Part shown: piece by piece, positions 1-28,057 of the stretch
How the letters are laid out: the number at the start of each line of letters is the position of its first letter
Numbering within the stretch: the stretch's first letter is position 1
DNA from: Eledone cirrhosa
Lineage: Eukaryota
Direction: 5' to 3'
DNA length: 64,000 bases
Assembly: GCA_964016885.1 (NCBI GenBank)
Contig: OZ024743.1
Coordinates: 293,880,001 to 293,944,000 of the forward strand
Notes under the pieces: model-generated
What the model saw: only the letters and a program-made list of their open reading frames with translations
Told to the model about the DNA's origin: nothing
Databases searched by the model: none
Made by a program: the position numbers and the translations under genes

Positions 1-253
1 TCGGTGAATCCATACGTACATATATATATGTGTGCATATATGTATATATATATACATACTACTGTACGTCTGTATACACATATGTATGTACGTGTAGATA
101 CTTATATTTAAGTAACCGCCGTACTAAGAGTGGGAAATGAAATTTCGTTTCATTTTTTCCGTATAATATATGTATATATATATAATCAAGGTTTAGCAAA
201 TAAGAAAAAGTTTCAAAATAAATTTCAAAATATTCACTGTACTCACTATGGTT

Positions 254-341
254 ACCTTTACCGAATCGGTTTCGAGTCTCAAAAAAAAAATGGACAGTCC
301 TTGCGGCCTTCCATTGAAAAGATAAACTCTCGTCAGAAGAT
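254..341 (-). ncRNA. Type I hammerhead ribozyme with extended stem II (copy 1)
   Basis: Minus strand reads AUCUU-CUGACGA-GAGUUU..long stem II..GAGACUC-GAAA-CCG AUU CGG-UA/AAGGU. All core nucleotides and stems I-III are present. Confidence 0.85.
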
Positions 342-740
342 TCTTTTCACTCGGAGAATATAAAATTCCCGAGTTCAAATTACGAACTGGCGCTATTCAA
401 AATTGTTCCCGATGTGAGAATGAATGATGTGGAAGAAATTCTGTCCAGTGCCGTGTGTAAAGATAGAAGCAGAGGTAGGGAGGTCAGTCTACTACCACTA
501 TAAATAGCAGCAGTCAAAACGACCAACTTTTATTTCGACCAAGAGGAGAATAATAATAATAAAGTATATATCCCTACACACAAAAAGCGTCCAGGGACAC
601 ATGTATCGTCCAACCATATGCCAATGTGGTTCAATGGCAGGTTAATAAATTAACGAGCCAGAACATATATAATCAAGGTTTAGCAAATAAGAAAAAGTTT
701 CAAAATAAATTTCAAAAAATTCACTGTACTCACTATGGTT

Positions 741-827
741 ACCTTTACCGAATCGGTTTCGAGTCTCAAAAATAAATGGACAGTCCTTGCGGCCTTCCAT
801 TGAAAAGATAAACTCTCGTCAGAAGGT
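741..827 (-). ncRNA. Type I hammerhead ribozyme with extended stem II (copy 2)
   Basis: Minus strand reads ACCUU-CUGACGA-GAGUUU...GAGACUC-GAAACCGAUUCGGUA/AAGGU, with perfect stem I ACCUU/AAGGU. Confidence 0.88.
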
Positions 828-837
828 TCTTTTCACT

Positions 838-1108
<271 letters not shown>

Positions 1109-6573: not shown

Positions 6574-6640
<67 letters not shown>

Positions 6641-6644
<4 letters not shown>

Positions 6645-6736
6645 AAAAAGATGAGTATTGACGTCAAAAAATACGGTGAAAGGTATTCTACTTTCTAATT
6701 TCAAACCTGCTCACTGTTTCAAAACATACTTACTTG

Positions 6737-6788
<52 letters not shown>

Positions 6789-6859
6789 CAAGTAAGTATG
6801 TTTTGAAAGTAGAATACCTTTCACCGTATTTTTTGACGTCAATACTCATCTTTTTCCAT
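6641..6859. repeat. Inverted repeat (arms 6641-6740 and 6785-6859) centred on (AT)n
   Basis: ATGGAAAAAGATGAGTATTGACG...CTTACTTGTCAT is mirrored by ATGACAAGTAAG...CTCATCTTTTTCCAT; the right arm has an internal deletion. Confidence 0.85.
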
Positions 6860-6922
6860 TTATCTGAGGGTTCTAAACCTCATTATCAGACTAAAATTAC
6901 TTTAATAAAAAAATACGGTGAA

Positions 6923-6950
<28 letters not shown>

Positions 6951-6953
<3 letters not shown>

Positions 6954-7389
6954 GAGAGTAAAACAAAGAATCCTTTAATACATCAAAAGTTTTTATTAGC
7001 CGACAACGTTTCGTCCTATTAAGGACTCATCAGGGCAATCAAAACAACAACAAGTAATATCGGCAGATACAAGCCGGAAACTCTGAAGAATATGGAGTGT
7101 GCATACACTAAAGTCTTACAAAAATATATAATAATAAAAATGAAAATAAAAATAAAAATAATAAAAATATATAATAATAAGAATAACTAAGGATGTAGAT
7201 AACATTAAGAACCATATTACAAATATAGTCCAAAGCAACTAACCTAAATCTAAACAAATTTGGTTATATAGAGCAGGAATTATATATAACACAATGCAAT
7301 AAACATAATACATTATAATAATATACCTATACCAACATTAAAATTACAAATTAAAAATCAAAAGGTACAATATATACATGTATATATGT

Positions 7390-7428
<39 letters not shown>

Positions 7429-7618
7429 ACAATACACCCAATACACCTTAATAGGACGAAACATTGTCGGCTAATAAAAACTTTTGATGTATTAAAGGAT
7501 TCTTTGTTTTACTCTCTTAATTTTTTGGCTCTGTTTAACTGCATTGAGCTATACCTTTTACTGTCATTTCTATAATACGAAGAGGGTGTTTAACTCCAAC
7601 ACGCTCCAGTATTCTGAT

Positions 7619-7621
<3 letters not shown>
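6951..7621. mobile_element. Penelope-like inverted pLTR pair (minus copy 6951-7375; 5'-truncated plus copy from 7446)
   Basis: 6951-7024 is the reverse complement of 7446-7520. The minus copy holds a full hammerhead; the plus copy starts inside it. Confidence 0.75.
6995..7039 (-). ncRNA. Minimal type I hammerhead ribozyme (Penelope-associated)
   Basis: Minus strand reads AUUGCC-CUGAUGA-GUCC UUAAUA GGAC-GAAAC GUU GUC/GGCUAAU. Confidence 0.88.
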
Positions 7622-7671
<50 letters not shown>

Positions 7672-7675
<4 letters not shown>

Positions 7676-9815
7676 CACAATACTCCAACCTCAATAAATG
7701 ACGATATATCACACTTCTGTAGAAAATTACGTCTCACAGAGGAAGTTTTTGGTAAGGAGAATAACGACCAAGCAATTTTACGGAATAAAAGCAGCTACAA
7801 CCCAACAAAAGGTAGAAACAGAGTTCTGGACACATTTTGTGACCACATAGCAACTTTCCCACGAACTACGGCAACCTAAACCCAAACCCAACACGAGTCG
7901 AAGGGAATGAGAGATTATCCATGAACTAAAAAACAATACGTACATTATAATTAAGGAAGCGGACAAAGGAAGTATTGTTGTCATTATGGATGCTGAACAA
8001 TATAAACATTCTATGTTCTCTCTCTTACAAAATACTAACTACTATGAAAGAGTAAAAAACGACCAGCAATCAAAAACGATGACCAGATTAAACACATTCA
8101 TTTGTCGATACCAGGAAGACATAACTAAAAAGGAACGCGATTATTTAACACATTTTGAATACAAAACCAGCAACCTTTACGGATTTCCGAAGATCCACAA
8201 GTGTAAAATAATTAACGATGCCTGTAAACAATCCACCCCAGCCTGCGTGAACACACAATACCCCACATACCTTATATTAAGACCAATTGTAGCGGGCCCA
8301 CAACGTGAAACACAGAGACTAAGCAACTTTATAGACATACTACTAAAACCAATTCTCAAACACGTACCAAGCCTTGTAAGAGACGATCTGGACCTCTTAA
8401 ACCACCTCCCCAAACATATCAACAACGACACTATTATTGTGTCTTTCGATGTCGTGAATCTCTACACAACGATCCCACACCAATACGGACTGGAAGCAAT
8501 AGGATTCTGGCTACAGAAATATCCCAATGAGATACCTGACAGAATATAATAAAAGCTTCATCACCGAGGGATTAAAATTTATTTTACAGAACAACTATTT
8601 TGATTTCGATGGCAGTAATTACAAGCAAATATCGGGGACTGCGATGGGTACAAAAGCCGCTCCAACTATGCCAACTTAGTCATGGCATACTTGGAAGTCT
8701 AGATATATGAACACTCCAAATCAAAATACGGATTGAACTTCCACAAATATTTATCAGAGAATTGGAAACGCTACTTGGATTATTGTCTCATTCTTTGGTC
8801 TCACACACTCGAACAACTAAATTATTTCAAAAATGTAATTAACGGCACCAATATCCACACCCAATTCACAATGGAATACAGTCAAGATCAACTCCCATTT
8901 CTGGACATCTTAATCTTAAAAAAAGACACAAACATTGAAACTGACATCCACTACAAACAAACAGATTCCAAACAATACCTGCTATTCACCTCCAACCATC
9001 CAAAGCACACGAAGACGAACATCCCTTTTAACCTAGCAAGAAGAATTTGCACAATTGTCTCCAATTATGAAACGCGAAATAAAAGACTTCAAGAATTAAA
9101 GGAAATTCTACCCGAAAGAGAGTACCCACCATTACTAATAAATAATGGAATAGAAAGGGCTAAAGCAATAGGCATTGATGAATTACGAATACAGAAACAA
9201 ATTCAAGGTACGTCCAATATTCTATCATATATCTCAACACACAACCCACGAAATGCGGAAGCTTACAACACTATTCACAAGAACACCCCACTATTGAAAC
9301 AAGACCCAAGAATGAAAAAAGCCCTTGAAACATAGAAAATAATCAAAAGCAAAAGACAACCGAAATCATTAATAACATTACTCACCAATGCCAAATTACC
9401 TACCACAGCCCAAAATCAACTGTCAAAAAATGTGGTCGCTATAATTGTGGAACCTGCATTCACCTCATTGAAGGCAATACGTATACATTTCAATCAGGAC
9501 AACATTTTTCTGTAAAAAATCACTTCCCTTGCTCATAAAAAAATCATTAAATGTAAAGGATGCAATGCAGATTATATAGGACAAACTAAACTCACACTCA
9601 GAAACAGAATGATAATTCATCGCCAACAATTACGAGATCCAACCACGAGACAGATACCACTAAGTGCACATCTACACATATGCGCAAGTAATAAGACACC
9701 CAAATTCCAAGTCTTCCCATTTTATCTTTGCGCTGACAATACAACAGAACACATACGAATAAAGAAGGAAAATATGTTTATTCAAAAATATAGACCAGCG
9801 TTAAATATAGTTTAA
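7672..9815 (+). pseudogene. Penelope-like element (Neptune-type) RT plus GIY-YIG endonuclease, with stops and frameshifts
   Basis: RT motifs FCRKLRL, IIKEADKG, LYGFPKIHK, LRPIVAG, SFDVVNLYTTIPH, GTAMGTKAAP, WKRYLDY and LPFLD. A Cys-rich linker CGRYNCGTC precedes the GIY-YIG-type CKGCNADYIGQT..RNRMIIHR. Confidence 0.9.
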
Positions 9816-10345: not shown

Positions 10346-11114
10346 CAAGCACACAAATAAACATACATATCTCTACTTTCTTTATTTCAATAGAAAGTCT
10401 GAATTCTGAAACCCCAGCGCACCAGCCATATTCACTGAACCAGAACAATTCTCTCTCCATCCCTTTTTTCTTGACCATTATCTTTTGTTTGGCACAAAAT
10501 TCTCTAAATGGCTATAAAAAATTCCGAAATACGGGCGTGAAATTTAATGTACTTGTTCACGTGAGAGTATTAATTTCATTTATAACCAATCAAATTACAT
10601 TCATTTAAAGAAAGCCTTCGTAAGCCACCCTTTTTTTAAGTAAAAAGAAATTCAAACACAAACTGGCGCGAAAGCTGATGTGCTTATTCACGTGACTGCC
10701 TCAACCAACCAAACTTCACCATACATGAAAAACAATCTGAGCCCCCCCCCCCCTTGTTTGAAGAACTTTGTAACACGAACTGGCCGCGAAATTTAATATA
10801 CTTATTCACCAACCAAATTACTTCTCTAAAAACTTGGCATTTCGAGCCACTTTTTTCCATATAAAACAAGTAATATTCAAAGACCAACCAGATATGAGAA
10901 AAACCACAGACCCTCCATCTCAATTCTACTTTTGAAAAGCAGAAGAAGTGCGAAACCGGTAAAGGAACCAAATAAATAATATATTTTCACAAAAAAGACT
11001 CCAGTTGCATTTTCGATTTCATCTTCTTTCCTTATACTTTCACTCGTATAGGACATTTCGGTTATTTTTCATTTTGTAAAAAAACCCTCACTTTCTAATA
11101 TATATATATATATA

Positions 11115-13228
11115 TACGATATTAAATAAATGGAAACTATATTTATAAAACCATATTTATTTCATTATATATATTTCAGGGATATCATATTAACAATATG
11201 TTATGCCTTCTTCAGACAAAATACAATATAGACAGTTTTATAGATAAATAGATTTGACATACCGTTCAACATCGACTTGTATTTGAAAAAGTTGATTTGG
11301 CAGTGAAAAATTGTAAACAGAAAGAAAGAAAGAAAGAAAGAAGGAAAGAAAGAAAGAAAACGAAGAAAAAGAAGAAAAAGAAGAAATGCATGCAACAAAA
11401 TAGAGAGATGGAAAGATAGATAAAGAGAAGAACTTCATGTAAAGAAACAGAGAGAGATATATAGAGAGAGGAAATAGACAGAGATAGAGAAAAGTAGGTA
11501 GTTGAACGACGTATCAATGATACATTTATTTATTTATTTATTTATTTATTTAGCTCTAGTATTAATGTAAGGGAGATATATGTGGTTAGGAAAGAAACCA
11601 GACGTTATATAGAGAGAAAAATGAAAAGTAACCAGACATAGGCGAGGCAGAATTTAAAAACCCTATGTTTTAATGTAGAAATATTAGTTCGTATAAAAAC
11701 CAGGCACTATACTGTAAATATCAGTATTCCTGAATGAGACACGTATCTATAATGTGTGAAAAGTAATGATCTTATGTCTAGTTTTAAAAATTCATATGTT
11801 TATATGATAACTACAAACATCGATGTGAATTTACGTGATCAACTCTGCAAATCCCTATTTCACACGGAGAACATTCTCATTGTGCTATAAAAATTTAAGT
11901 ATACATATATGTGTATATATACACACATATATATAGAGTCTATATTAATTTTAACAATACTATTCTTGTCTTTACTCTACATGATTATCTATCAAGCAGA
12001 AATAGAGATGATCTTTGTGGTCGATTTCCAAAATGATCTTTGTGGTCGATTTGCGTGGCATATTATGTTTTTATTTTTATTATTTTAATATTTTTTAATA
12101 TTTTTAAAATTTCCATTTTTAATATGTAATATTTTTTAGTTTTCTATTTTATTTATTTGTTTATTATTATTATTATTATTATTATTTTTTATTTTTTGTT
12201 TTTGTTTCTGATATTTTTATTAATATATTGAAATCTGTTCTCTATTTCTGCTTGATAGATAATCATGTAGAGTAAAGACAAGAATAGTATTGTTAAAATT
12301 AATATAGACTCTATATATATGTGTGTATATATACACATATATGTATACTTAAATTTTTATAGCACAATGAGAATGTTCTCCGTGTGAAATAGGGGTTTGC
12401 AGAGTTGATCACGTAAATTCACATCGATGTTTGTAGTTATCATATAAACATATGCATTTTTAAAACTAGACATAAGATCATTACTTTTCACACATTATAG
12501 ATACGTGTCTCATTCAGGAATACTGATATTTACAGTATAGTGCCTGGTTTTTATACGAACTAATATTTCTACATTAAAACATAGGGTTTTTAAATTCTGC
12601 CTCGCCTATGTCTGGTTACTTTTCATTTTTCTCTCTATATAACGGCTGGTTTCTTTCCTAACCACATATATCTCCCTTACATTAATACTAGAGCTAAATA
12701 AATAAATAAATAAATAAATGTATCATTGATACGTCGTTCAACTACCTACTTTTCTCTATATATATCTATCTCTATCTATTTCCTCTCTCTATATATCTCT
12801 CTCTGTTTCTTTACATGAAGTTCTTCTCTTTATCTATCTTTCCATCTCTCTATTTTGTTGCATGCATTTCTTCTTTTTCTTCTTTTTCTTCGTTTTCTTT
12901 CTTTCTTTCCTTCTTTCTTTCTTTCTTTCTTTCTGTTTACAATTTTTCACTGCCAAATCAACTTTTTCAAATACAAGTCGATGTTGAACGGTATGTCAAA
13001 TCTATTTATCTATAAAACTGTCTATATTGTATTTTGTCTGAAGAAGGCATAACATATTGTTAATATGATATCCCTGAAATATATATAATGAAATAAATAT
13101 GGTTTTATAAATATAGTTTCCATTTATTTAATATCGTAAATATACTCCAAATACTTGTTGAGTGCTTTTATATCAGTTATAAATATTTACTAGTTGTAAC
13201 CCAACAATTTAAATATAACTTTCCATGT
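11115..13228. mobile_element. Foldback non-autonomous element: ~895-bp inverted arms (11115-12008 and 12239-13138), ~230-bp spacer, plus ~90-bp unpaired right extension
   Basis: The arms are near-perfect reverse complements (identical ORF translations on both strands in the track). The element is flanked by (TA)n. Confidence 0.85.
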
Positions 13229-13251
13229 ATATATATATATATATATATACA

Positions 13252-13452
13252 CAAATACATTACACAAAGAGAAGTGTGTTACACAGTGAGATGTGTGTAA
13301 AGAATTATTACGAGATTTTGACGTAGTTTTTTTCTATTTAATTGCTAAACCTGAAGATATTGTTCTCTATACAGTAACGGTAAAACTCACTTGTAATAAT
13401 TCTTTACACACATCTCGCTTTGTAACACACTTCCCTTTGTGTAATATATTTG
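13252..13452. mobile_element. MITE-like element with ~60-bp terminal inverted repeats
   Basis: CAAATACATTACACAAAGAGAAGTGTGTTAC...GAATTATTAC is mirrored at 13393-13452. Confidence 0.75.
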
Positions 13453-14133: not shown

Positions 14134-14183
<50 letters not shown>

Positions 14184-14186
<3 letters not shown>

Positions 14187-14480
14187 GATATTAAACAAAT
14201 GGAAACTATATTTATAAAACCATATTTATTTCATTATACATATTTCAGGGATACCATATTAAAAATATGGCATGCCTTCTTCAGATAAAATACAATATAT
14301 AAGCAGTTTTATAAATAAATTTGACGTACCATAAATATTGATCAACTTCCATTTAAAGAAGTTGGTTTGGTAGTTTAATATTTGGTAGTTTAATATCGTA
14401 TATCTACTCCAAAACTTGTTATATCAGTTATAAAATATTTACTCGTTGTAACCCAACAATTTTAAATAAAACTTTTGCAT
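14184..14480 (+). mobile_element. Short member of the 11115-13228 element family
   Basis: Same TACGATATTAAA..ATGGAAACTATATTTATAAAACC start, a 10-bp inverted TAATATCGTA, and the same TATCAGTTATAAA..GTTGTAACCCAACAA end; inserted in (TA)n. Confidence 0.8.
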
Positions 14481-20290: not shown

Positions 20291-20296
20291 CATATA

Positions 20297-20552
20297 TACG
20301 ATATATTAACAAATGGAAACTATATTTATAAAACCATATTTATTTCATTACACATATTTCAAGGACACCAAGTCAAATTATGGTGCGCTTTCATCAGATA
20401 AAATATAATATAGATCAGTTTTATAAATAAATATTGACATACCCTTAAAGAATGCGACCATTTCTGTTGGAAGCTCCCGGATAGGGAGTGCTTTATATCA
20501 GTTATAAAAATATTTGCTTGTTGTATCCCAACAATTTAAATATAACTTCTAC
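20297..20552 (+). mobile_element. Third member of the 11115-13228 element family
   Basis: Same 5' TACGATAT..AAATGGAAACTATATTTATAAAACC and 3' TATCAGTTATAAA..TTGTTGTATCCCAACAATTTAAATATAACTT termini, ending in (TA)n. Confidence 0.75.
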
Positions 20553-26924: not shown

Positions 26925-27869
26925 GCGGTGAATTGGCAGTATCGGTAGAGGGTCGGATGCCATGTTAGGGCGGTGAATTGGCAGTATCGGTAGAGGGTCG
27001 GATGCCATGTTAGGGCAGTGAATTGGCAGTATCGGTAGAGGGTCGGACGCCATGTTAGGGCGGTGAATTGGCAGTATCGGCAGAGAGTCGGATGCCATGT
27101 TAGGGCGGTGAATTGGCAGTATCGGTAGAGGGTCGGACGCCATGTTAGGGTGGTGAATTGGCAGTATCGGTAGAGGGTCGGACGCCATGTTAGGGCGGTG
27201 AATTGGCAGTATCGGTAGAGGGTCGGACGCCATGTTAGGGCGGTGAATTGGCAGTATCGGTAGAGGGTCGGACACCATGTTAGGGCGGTGAATTGGCAGG
27301 ATCGGTAGAGGGTCGGACGCCATGTTAGGGCGGTGAATTGGCAGTATCGGTAGAGGGTCGGACGCCATGTTAGGGCGGTGAATTGGCAGTATCGGTAGAG
27401 GATCGGACGCCATGTTAGGGCGGTGAATTGGCAGTATCGGTAGAGGGTCGGACGCCATGTTAGGGCGGTGAATTGGCAGTATCGGTAGAGGGTCGGACGC
27501 CATGTTAGGGCGGTGAATTGGTAGTATCGGTAGAGGGTCGGACGCCATGTTAGGGCGGTGAATTGGCAGTATCGGTAGAGGGTCGGACGCCATGTTAGGG
27601 CGGTGAATTGGTAGTATCGGTAGAGGGTCGGGCACCATGTTAGGGCTGTGAATTGGCAGGATTGGTAGAGGGTCGGACGCCATTTTAGGGCGGTGAATTG
27701 GCAGTATCGGTAGAGGGTCGGACGCCATGTTAGGGCGGTGAATTGGCAGTATCGGTAGAGGGTCGGACGCCATGTTAGGGCGGTGAATTGGCAGTATCGG
27801 TAGAGGGTGGGACGGCATGTCAGGGCGGTGAATTGGCAGTATCAGTAGAGGGTCGGACGCCATGTTAGA
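26925..27869 (+). repeat. Minisatellite of 21 x 45-bp units derived from the SINE 5' head
   Basis: Unit GCGGTGAATTGGCAGTATCGGTAGAGGGTCGGACGCCATGTTAGG with an exact 45-bp period. Confidence 0.95.
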
Positions 27870-28057
27870 GCGGTGAATTGCCAGTATCGGTAGAGGGTCG
27901 GATGCCATGCTTTGACGCATAGTTACGGCCCTTGCCATTCTGAGTTCAAATCCCGCCGAGGTTAACTTTGCCTTTCATCGTTACGGGGGTCGATAAAATA
28001 AAATACCAGTAATACACTGAGTAATTGCTGGCCTTGTGCCCAAAGTAGAAACAATTA
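27870..28057 (+). mobile_element. Full main tRNA-SINE ending the minisatellite; TSD ATTATCTCCACATAGC at 26911-26926 and 28054-28069
   Basis: A box, B box GAGTTCAAATCC, central domain and GGCCTTGTGCC tail. Confidence 0.9.

Follow-up and report, generated by a model that had tools for sequence, protein, structure and literature searches.

A probable non-coding retrozyme family with tandem type I hammerhead ribozymes in Eledone cirrhosa

The beginning of the 64,000-nucleotide stretch of Eledone cirrhosa DNA analysed here (contig OZ024743.1; hereafter the window) probably carries an inserted member of a non-LTR retrozyme family that is non-coding and present in many copies, in other words a non-autonomous Penelope-like element (PLE) with a unit of about 485 nt and one type I hammerhead ribozyme per unit. 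The insertion spans 178..837 on the minus strand, with edges that fade into TA runs on both sides, and comprises two complete hammerheads but only 1.36 tandem copies of a 487-nt non-coding unit. Its 5' direct repeat (665..837, minus strand; hammerhead A plus 3' tail) aligns with the 3' direct repeat (178..351, minus strand; hammerhead B plus 3' tail) at 97.7% identity over 174 columns, the two starts being spaced by 487, which bears out the pair of direct repeats of about 170 bp proposed in an earlier, sequence-only reading of this DNA. The 487-nt spacing between predicted cleavage sites given in that reading was likewise recovered from cuts after 746 and 259, delimiting a predicted cut-to-cut monomer at 259..745 (minus strand) that has 37% GC, lacks a long open reading frame and is predicted to be self-paired.

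The window is TA-microsatellite-rich animal DNA, and the element itself lies between two TA microsatellites, at 166..184 (3' end) and 838..942 (5' end), so that a target duplication is unreadable. At its 3' end, the element passes into the TA run 74 nt past the cut; the 7-nt AT-alternating tract at this point recurs inside the unit, at the tandem junction (665..671, minus strand). In total, 81 nt of the copy lie past the 3' cut and 92 nt lie ahead of the 5' cut. As it spans both cuts, its template must have been a circle or an uncleaved multimer rather than a cleaved linear monomer. The element carries no poly(A) tail, and no second copy of the unit was detected within the 64-kb window. A weak likeness of the 3' tail to 13329-13366 (40 nt, 80%, E 0.12) was treated as chance; it falls within an inverted-repeat structure seen by eye at about 13250-13450.

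Both repeats display a complete type I hammerhead on the minus strand, as the sequence-only reading had it. Hammerhead A (741..827) has its core from 822 and its cut after 746, and hammerhead B (254..341) has its core from 336 and its cut after 259, positions that agree with the cleavage sites previously placed at 746/745 and 259/258. The CUGANGA, GAAA and NUH elements expected of a type I core are present in both copies, as CUGACGA (C3 at 822 and 336), GAAA and a GUA triplet, and so are a stem I of 5 bp, a stem II of 6 bp followed by an unbranched extension, and a stem III of 4 bp with a 3-nt loop; stem I of hammerhead B includes a private U-G pair (variant at 340). Stem III is indeed near-palindromic, with a self-duplex at -14.3 kcal/mol versus -2.0 kcal/mol for the hairpin. 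Stem II had been described as unusually long, at some 60 nt, and branched. The length holds, with 55-56 nt inserted between the core halves, whereas the branching is rejected, since the insert folds as a single unbranched, interrupted hairpin with a GCAA loop. Based on these models, A and B may self-cleave at the predicted sites.

A structure-aware scan of the 64 kb returned six hammerhead-like matches, namely A, B and four members of another family, while the same scan of block-shuffled sequence gave none in 30 of 30 shuffles. The Rfam hammerhead model, in contrast, had no match at its gathering score, and the seven weak Rfam matches up to E 10 include no hammerhead family and were set aside as TA-repeat artefacts. 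The long stem II is the likely reason for the miss, with the short hammerheads of the window also being missed, and such ribozymes may thus be undercounted in invertebrate genomes.

The unit belongs to a repeat family. Nine of the 12 sequencing-run rows hold part of the stretch, representing six studies and six organism labels, and four of the runs (X1, X4, X7 and X10) were surveyed against 100-664. In X1, which may be the window's own source and hence is not independent support for the sequence itself, 1,471 of 16.5 million contigs match, establishing the multi-copy nature expected of a retrozyme, with 304, 461, 464 and 242 contigs at 99% identity or more, 95-99%, 90-95% and below 90%, respectively. 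X10 contributed 2,299 matching reads, and X4 and X7 six contigs each. Depth covers 176-664 and is absent from 100-175 (the latter partly skipped as repeat), and the summed depth of 5,000-120,000, compared to 10-20 for single contigs, suggests as a rough estimate hundreds to thousands of family copies, although summed depth itself is no copy number. Pattern scans of metagenome contigs, viral contigs and prokaryote genomes yielded no match, as expected for an animal repeat.

Head-to-tail joints at the junction position of the window recur in X1, X4 and X10, with differing letters. A 513-nt X4 contig (organism B) passes place 204 at its positions 8 and 491, corresponding to a period of 483, even though its middle 160 letters are replaced by unlike ones of equal length. 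Since the junction recurs and the 483/487 length is kept, unit length and junction are family traits; arrays longer than this were not encountered. We did not accept this self-closing contig as a circular molecule, as collapsed genomic tandems give the same picture. Similarly, pile-ups of X10 read ends were rejected as cleavage sites, because X10 is a DNA RAD library in which four of the six listed ends lie on AATT sites of the window; the other two, inspected by hand, lie where common variants create AATT.

Variation among the copies was assessed on a partial count, with 40 of 143 substitution rows shown and the 20 at 226-384 examined. None of the 20 touches the hammerhead core or the 8-bp helix described below, and all four substitutions that fall in modelled pairs keep the pairing. 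Nearly all other copies have C-G in place of the stem I U-G pair of hammerhead B, and one-letter deletions in the loop of stem III are common. Three X1 contigs and one X7 contig have a stem III that is fully palindromic over 10 nt, the three X1 contigs also having a damaged core (loose end at 263, read by hand), and the 8-bp helix is altered at one position of its 3' strand in a 97-read X10 subfamily (by hand, from loose ends). A separate subfamily at 85% identity is represented by X4 record 11 (organism B), where a shifted pairing appears to keep the stem II hairpin, as judged by hand with about a third of the differences not shown.

How does this family compare with known elements? Non-LTR retrozymes of metazoans are tandem units of 150-450 bp with type I hammerheads and less than 50% GC that are expressed as circles (Cervera and de la Pena 2020, PMC7229834; PMC7761336), and PLEs have been proposed to mobilise them (PMC7229834; PMC7761336). 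The present element shares with them a non-coding unit of a few hundred bases, here in partial tandem, a single type I hammerhead per unit, a GC content below 50%, multiple copies, a monomer predicted to be strongly self-paired and the presence of PLEs in the genome. At 487 nt it exceeds the 150-450 bp range (PMC7229834), but it falls within the 51-972 bp of the retrozyme families that Li et al. 2026 tie to PLE pseudo-LTRs and regard as non-autonomous PLEs (bioRxiv 10.64898/2026.07.22.740005). Further differences are the 1.36 units, the stem II of 55-56 nt instead of a short one and a circular RNA that is, for the present element, a prediction. Plant LTR retrozymes similarly have two hammerhead-bearing direct repeats around a non-coding middle; however, they are distinguished by type III hammerheads, more than 55% GC and 4-bp target duplications, and were dismissed on account of the type I topology and 37% GC found here.

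The hammerheads of PLE pseudo-LTRs, with a large helix II, a short helix I and a palindromic helix III (PMC4209133), and in the Hydra clade a palindromic 4-bp stem III with a short loop (PMC8557442), offer a close parallel. Common to these and the present ribozymes are the type I topology, a stem I of 4-5 bp, a long helix II, a palindromic stem III with a 1-3-nt loop, the GUA cut, the (TA)n target and an end soon after the ribozyme (PMC4209133; Hydra-clade table of PMC8557442). In contrast, the present unit has no open reading frame, and its stem II insert greatly exceeds those of the Hydra rows; loops as long as 29-35 nt are given there only for two PLE-X1 families (PMC8557442). At this one insertion site, a partial-tandem layout, a (TA)n target and an end shortly 3' of the hammerhead occur together.

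Folding predictions were exploited to shed light on the unit RNA. The monomer is more stable than shuffled sequence, both linear (z -3.3, matched by 0 of 100 shuffles) and circular (z -4.4, 0 of 60 shuffles; opposite strand -1.4). For the ribozymes the outcome depends on the context. In excised hammerhead A the active fold is the predicted optimum, and in excised B it lies within 0.4 kcal/mol, but inclusion of seven further 5' nucleotides lets a competing hairpin win by about 3 kcal/mol. Within the 660-nt transcript, the pair probability of stems I and II is 0.01 or less. Folding constrained to the dimer gave -161.3 kcal/mol and to two monomers -159.0 kcal/mol, against -172.6 kcal/mol without constraint, so that the hammerhead fold costs 11-14 kcal/mol relative to the best structure predicted for the entire transcript.

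The competing hairpin stems from an 8-bp Watson-Crick complementarity of 349-342 with 322-315 (315..349, minus strand; same in repeat A), in which the 5' tail immediately preceding stem I meets the stem II internal loop; an equally good match would be offered by 87 of the 127,987 positions in the window. These pairs may represent either a pseudoknot or an inhibitory hairpin. As a pseudoknot, a type of structure the folding program cannot score, they would be compatible with stems I and II. Pseudoknot contacts are predicted in about 40% of hammerheads, across all three types (Perreault et al. 2011, PMC3088659), and those hammerheads equally show base-paired contact between the stem I and stem II regions. 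Here, however, the predicted contact amounts to 8 bp, and links the 5' tail with the internal loop of a long stem II, if it is not an inhibitory hairpin.

It is quite conceivable, though short of an even chance, that the family was once active and that the ribozyme of the present copy no longer cuts, leaving inert repeat DNA from which the 487-nt RNA is never released, a scenario compatible with a retrozyme origin. The energetic penalties listed above speak for such a loss, and eight of nine predicted retrozyme dimers from frog elements did not cleave when tested, a single one being active (10.64898/2026.07.22.740005). On the other hand, both cores are intact, the excised forms reach or nearly reach the active optimum, and the 8 pairs could stabilise the active fold as a pseudoknot instead of obstructing it.

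The sequence-only reading had further suggested that the unit is a non-autonomous ribozyme retroelement, possibly moved by a Penelope reverse transcriptase located at 7.7-9.8 kb. The element class agrees with our data, through the multi-copy family, the 483-487-nt junction recurring in two organisms, the (TA)n site and the 3' end near the cut, whereas the named partner does not. The reverse-transcriptase reading frame does exist, at 7694-9812, and aligns at 63-70% to P0001, which has reverse transcriptase and C-terminal GIY-YIG domains; among the 120 of 137 matches listed, the named relatives of the protein are from octopods and bivalves, which by themselves would suggest a mollusc, probably an octopod, as host. 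Its endonuclease is preceded by a CX4CxxC linker, a motif of the Neptune/Nematis type (PMC8557442). The frame is nevertheless broken by stops and frame changes, and the degraded element as a whole (6949-9812) has its own, different hammerhead, a short type I form at 7033 (minus strand) ending at (TA)n, and bears no sequence similarity to the unit, making mobilisation by this Penelope unlikely. Its presence demonstrates that such enzymes were active in the genome, not that its family moved the unit. The hammerhead at 7033 is accompanied by a 76-bp inverted partial copy at 7446-7521.

Additional hammerheads constitute a third family in the window, at 11109-13144, 14167-14382 and 20292-20449, with cores at 11215 (minus), 13038 (plus), 14284 (minus) and 20397 (minus). 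Two of the four copies are placed in a 910-bp inverted repeat of 97.9% identity, and in most copies a TA run some 49 nt past the cut marks the end; they are probably PLE terminal remnants. Taken over the window, six of the seven cut sites checked, among them that of the hammerhead next to the Penelope frame, are followed by a TA tract at a distance of 42-74 nt, and the end of the present element some 75-80 nt past the cut resembles that of these two other hammerhead families.

Such remnants raise the question of whether the unit is itself a plain pseudo-LTR remnant, that is, the 3' and 5' termini of an autonomous PLE joined together and left as a 5'-truncated partial tandem with a passenger hammerhead and with neither an independent short element nor a circle. 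PLEs do form partial tandems and most of their copies are truncated (PMC8557442; 10.64898/2026.07.22.740005), one PLE inserted in vitro without need for hammerhead cleavage (PMC11167929), the other short hammerhead remnants of the window end at (TA)n, and the middle of the unit, where other copies could hold a reading frame, has the lowest summed depth. Yet the junction recurs with differing letters, and the length is kept at 483 versus 487 in organism B despite the replaced middle. Moreover, the whole unit is covered by depth and the share of X1 contigs that run on into unlike sequence is zero, an argument weakened by the shortness of the contigs, and no PLE-coding remnant is apparent in 1-1200, where the best tblastn match among 120 PLE proteins has an E of 0.008. 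We therefore hold a pseudo-LTR origin to be unlikely.

The partner of the unit was also sought among named elements. No PLE sharing sequence with the unit was present in the 64-kb window, and six short words from the unit had no match in the published consensus files of Naiad, Chlamys and Hydra. The Hydra-1_Obim ribozyme differs from that of the unit, as compared by its published row only, and Naiad was discarded as partner because the published 3' ends of Octopus Naiad are unlike the unit by eye (PMC8557442). The 3' ends of both Octopus Naiad consensus sequences show, again by eye, a 6-bp stem around some 23 nt directly before GAAA, following an imperfect first core half, and may be decayed or variant long-loop hammerheads (PMC8557442). 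Naiad and Hydra PLEs, octopus families included, are listed with a (TA)n preference in the same source.

For the non-autonomous retrozyme, PLE-driven target-primed reverse transcription of a non-coding unit is the best reading of these data, with cleavage, circularisation and the partner enzyme being what we infer around it. A tandem copy would be transcribed from the minus strand, whereupon the hammerheads might cut, probably as a dimer via the palindromic stem III, releasing a monomer that could be closed by a host ligase. A TA microsatellite would then be nicked by a PLE protein from one of the clades that target (TA)n, of the Neptune, Hydra or Naiad type, and reverse transcription would begin at an internal position of the RNA, some 75-80 nt past the cut in the 3' direction, presumably at the 7-nt AT-alternating tract, which matches the (TA)n target. 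On a circular or an uncleaved multimeric template the enzyme would continue past a full unit (here to 1.36 units), generating two hammerhead-bearing direct repeats, able to seed the next round.

Such a start would have a counterpart in the purified Poseidon PLE of Anolis, where reverse transcription starts internally, 111-118 nt into the reading frame, with the hammerhead cut at 26, and which prefers AT-rich targets and uses unprocessed RNA (PMC11167929). The end 74-81 nt 3' of the cut in the present element compares with about 85-92 nt in Poseidon, the target is AT-rich in both, and a cleaved template is not required (PMC11167929). Conversely, the Poseidon reading frame starts within the hammerhead and its start site is without target homology (PMC11167929), whereas the present unit has no reading frame and its end coincides with the 7-nt tract matching the target.

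A bolder proposal goes beyond a known element type: the long-stem-II, pseudoknot-stabilised type I hammerheads would form a class overlooked by Rfam and standard descriptors, in which the 8-bp helix serves as a switch, forming an active pseudoknot while the dimer is being made and an inhibitory hairpin once the RNA is circular, with the PLE enzyme priming on the AT-alternating tract of the circle with nicked (TA)n. We consider this distinctly unlikely. Were it correct, PLE families reported without hammerheads (such as Naiad, with half-cores 35-50 nt apart) may carry ribozymes of this kind, and the mobility of animal retrozymes could be tested directly on the present family.

Finally, it is highly improbable that the repeat has nothing to do with PLEs and is instead a satellite or SINE-like sequence that multiplied through unequal crossover or with the help of a LINE enzyme, for despite the many LINE copies in the window, the naming of LINEs as possible mobilisers (PMC7229834) and the local satellite-style growth proposed for tandem units (10.64898/2026.07.22.740005), the copy is solitary in 64 kb, has no poly(A) tail and exhibits the same order of hammerhead, short tail and (TA)n as the PLE-linked hammerhead at 7033.

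The unit probably represents an added family of a known non-LTR retrozyme or non-autonomous PLE kind and involves no new mechanism, extending the animal retrozymes by a probable cephalopod family. For a specialist, only its long stem II and its 8-bp helix might merit testing. Of broader relevance, the ends of the copy leave a circle or an uncleaved multimer as the template and suggest a PLE that targets (TA)n, both of which touch on the as yet unproven route of mobilisation. Among the papers listed by searches of mainly open-access literature, none was devoted to an octopus hammerhead ribozyme and none showed the present family. The classes named by Li et al. 2026 include no mollusc, although the supplements of that preprint could list similar families (10.64898/2026.07.22.740005), and a repeat annotation of Octopus vulgaris reports recently active Penelope-like families, ribozymes and hammerheads being absent from its main text (PMC13282606).

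Several other features of the window were observed. Inside the unit, on the plus strand and hence opposite the ribozyme strand, TATAAATA at 499-506 may reflect chance or an antisense promoter. A short inverted-repeat structure is found at 6637-6863, and 26925-27909 consists of a 45-bp tandem array of about 95% identity that is open in two minus-strand frames. The region from about 33000 to 64000 is occupied by five or six LINE copies on the same strand, arranged head-to-tail with a period of about 6 kb and 77-95% identical, which encode endonuclease, reverse transcriptase and zf-RVT domains together with an upstream reading frame without Pfam match. Short trinucleotide repeats separate the copies, two of which retain intact reading frames of 1150-1195 amino acids, and the arrangement looks like repeated targeted insertion.
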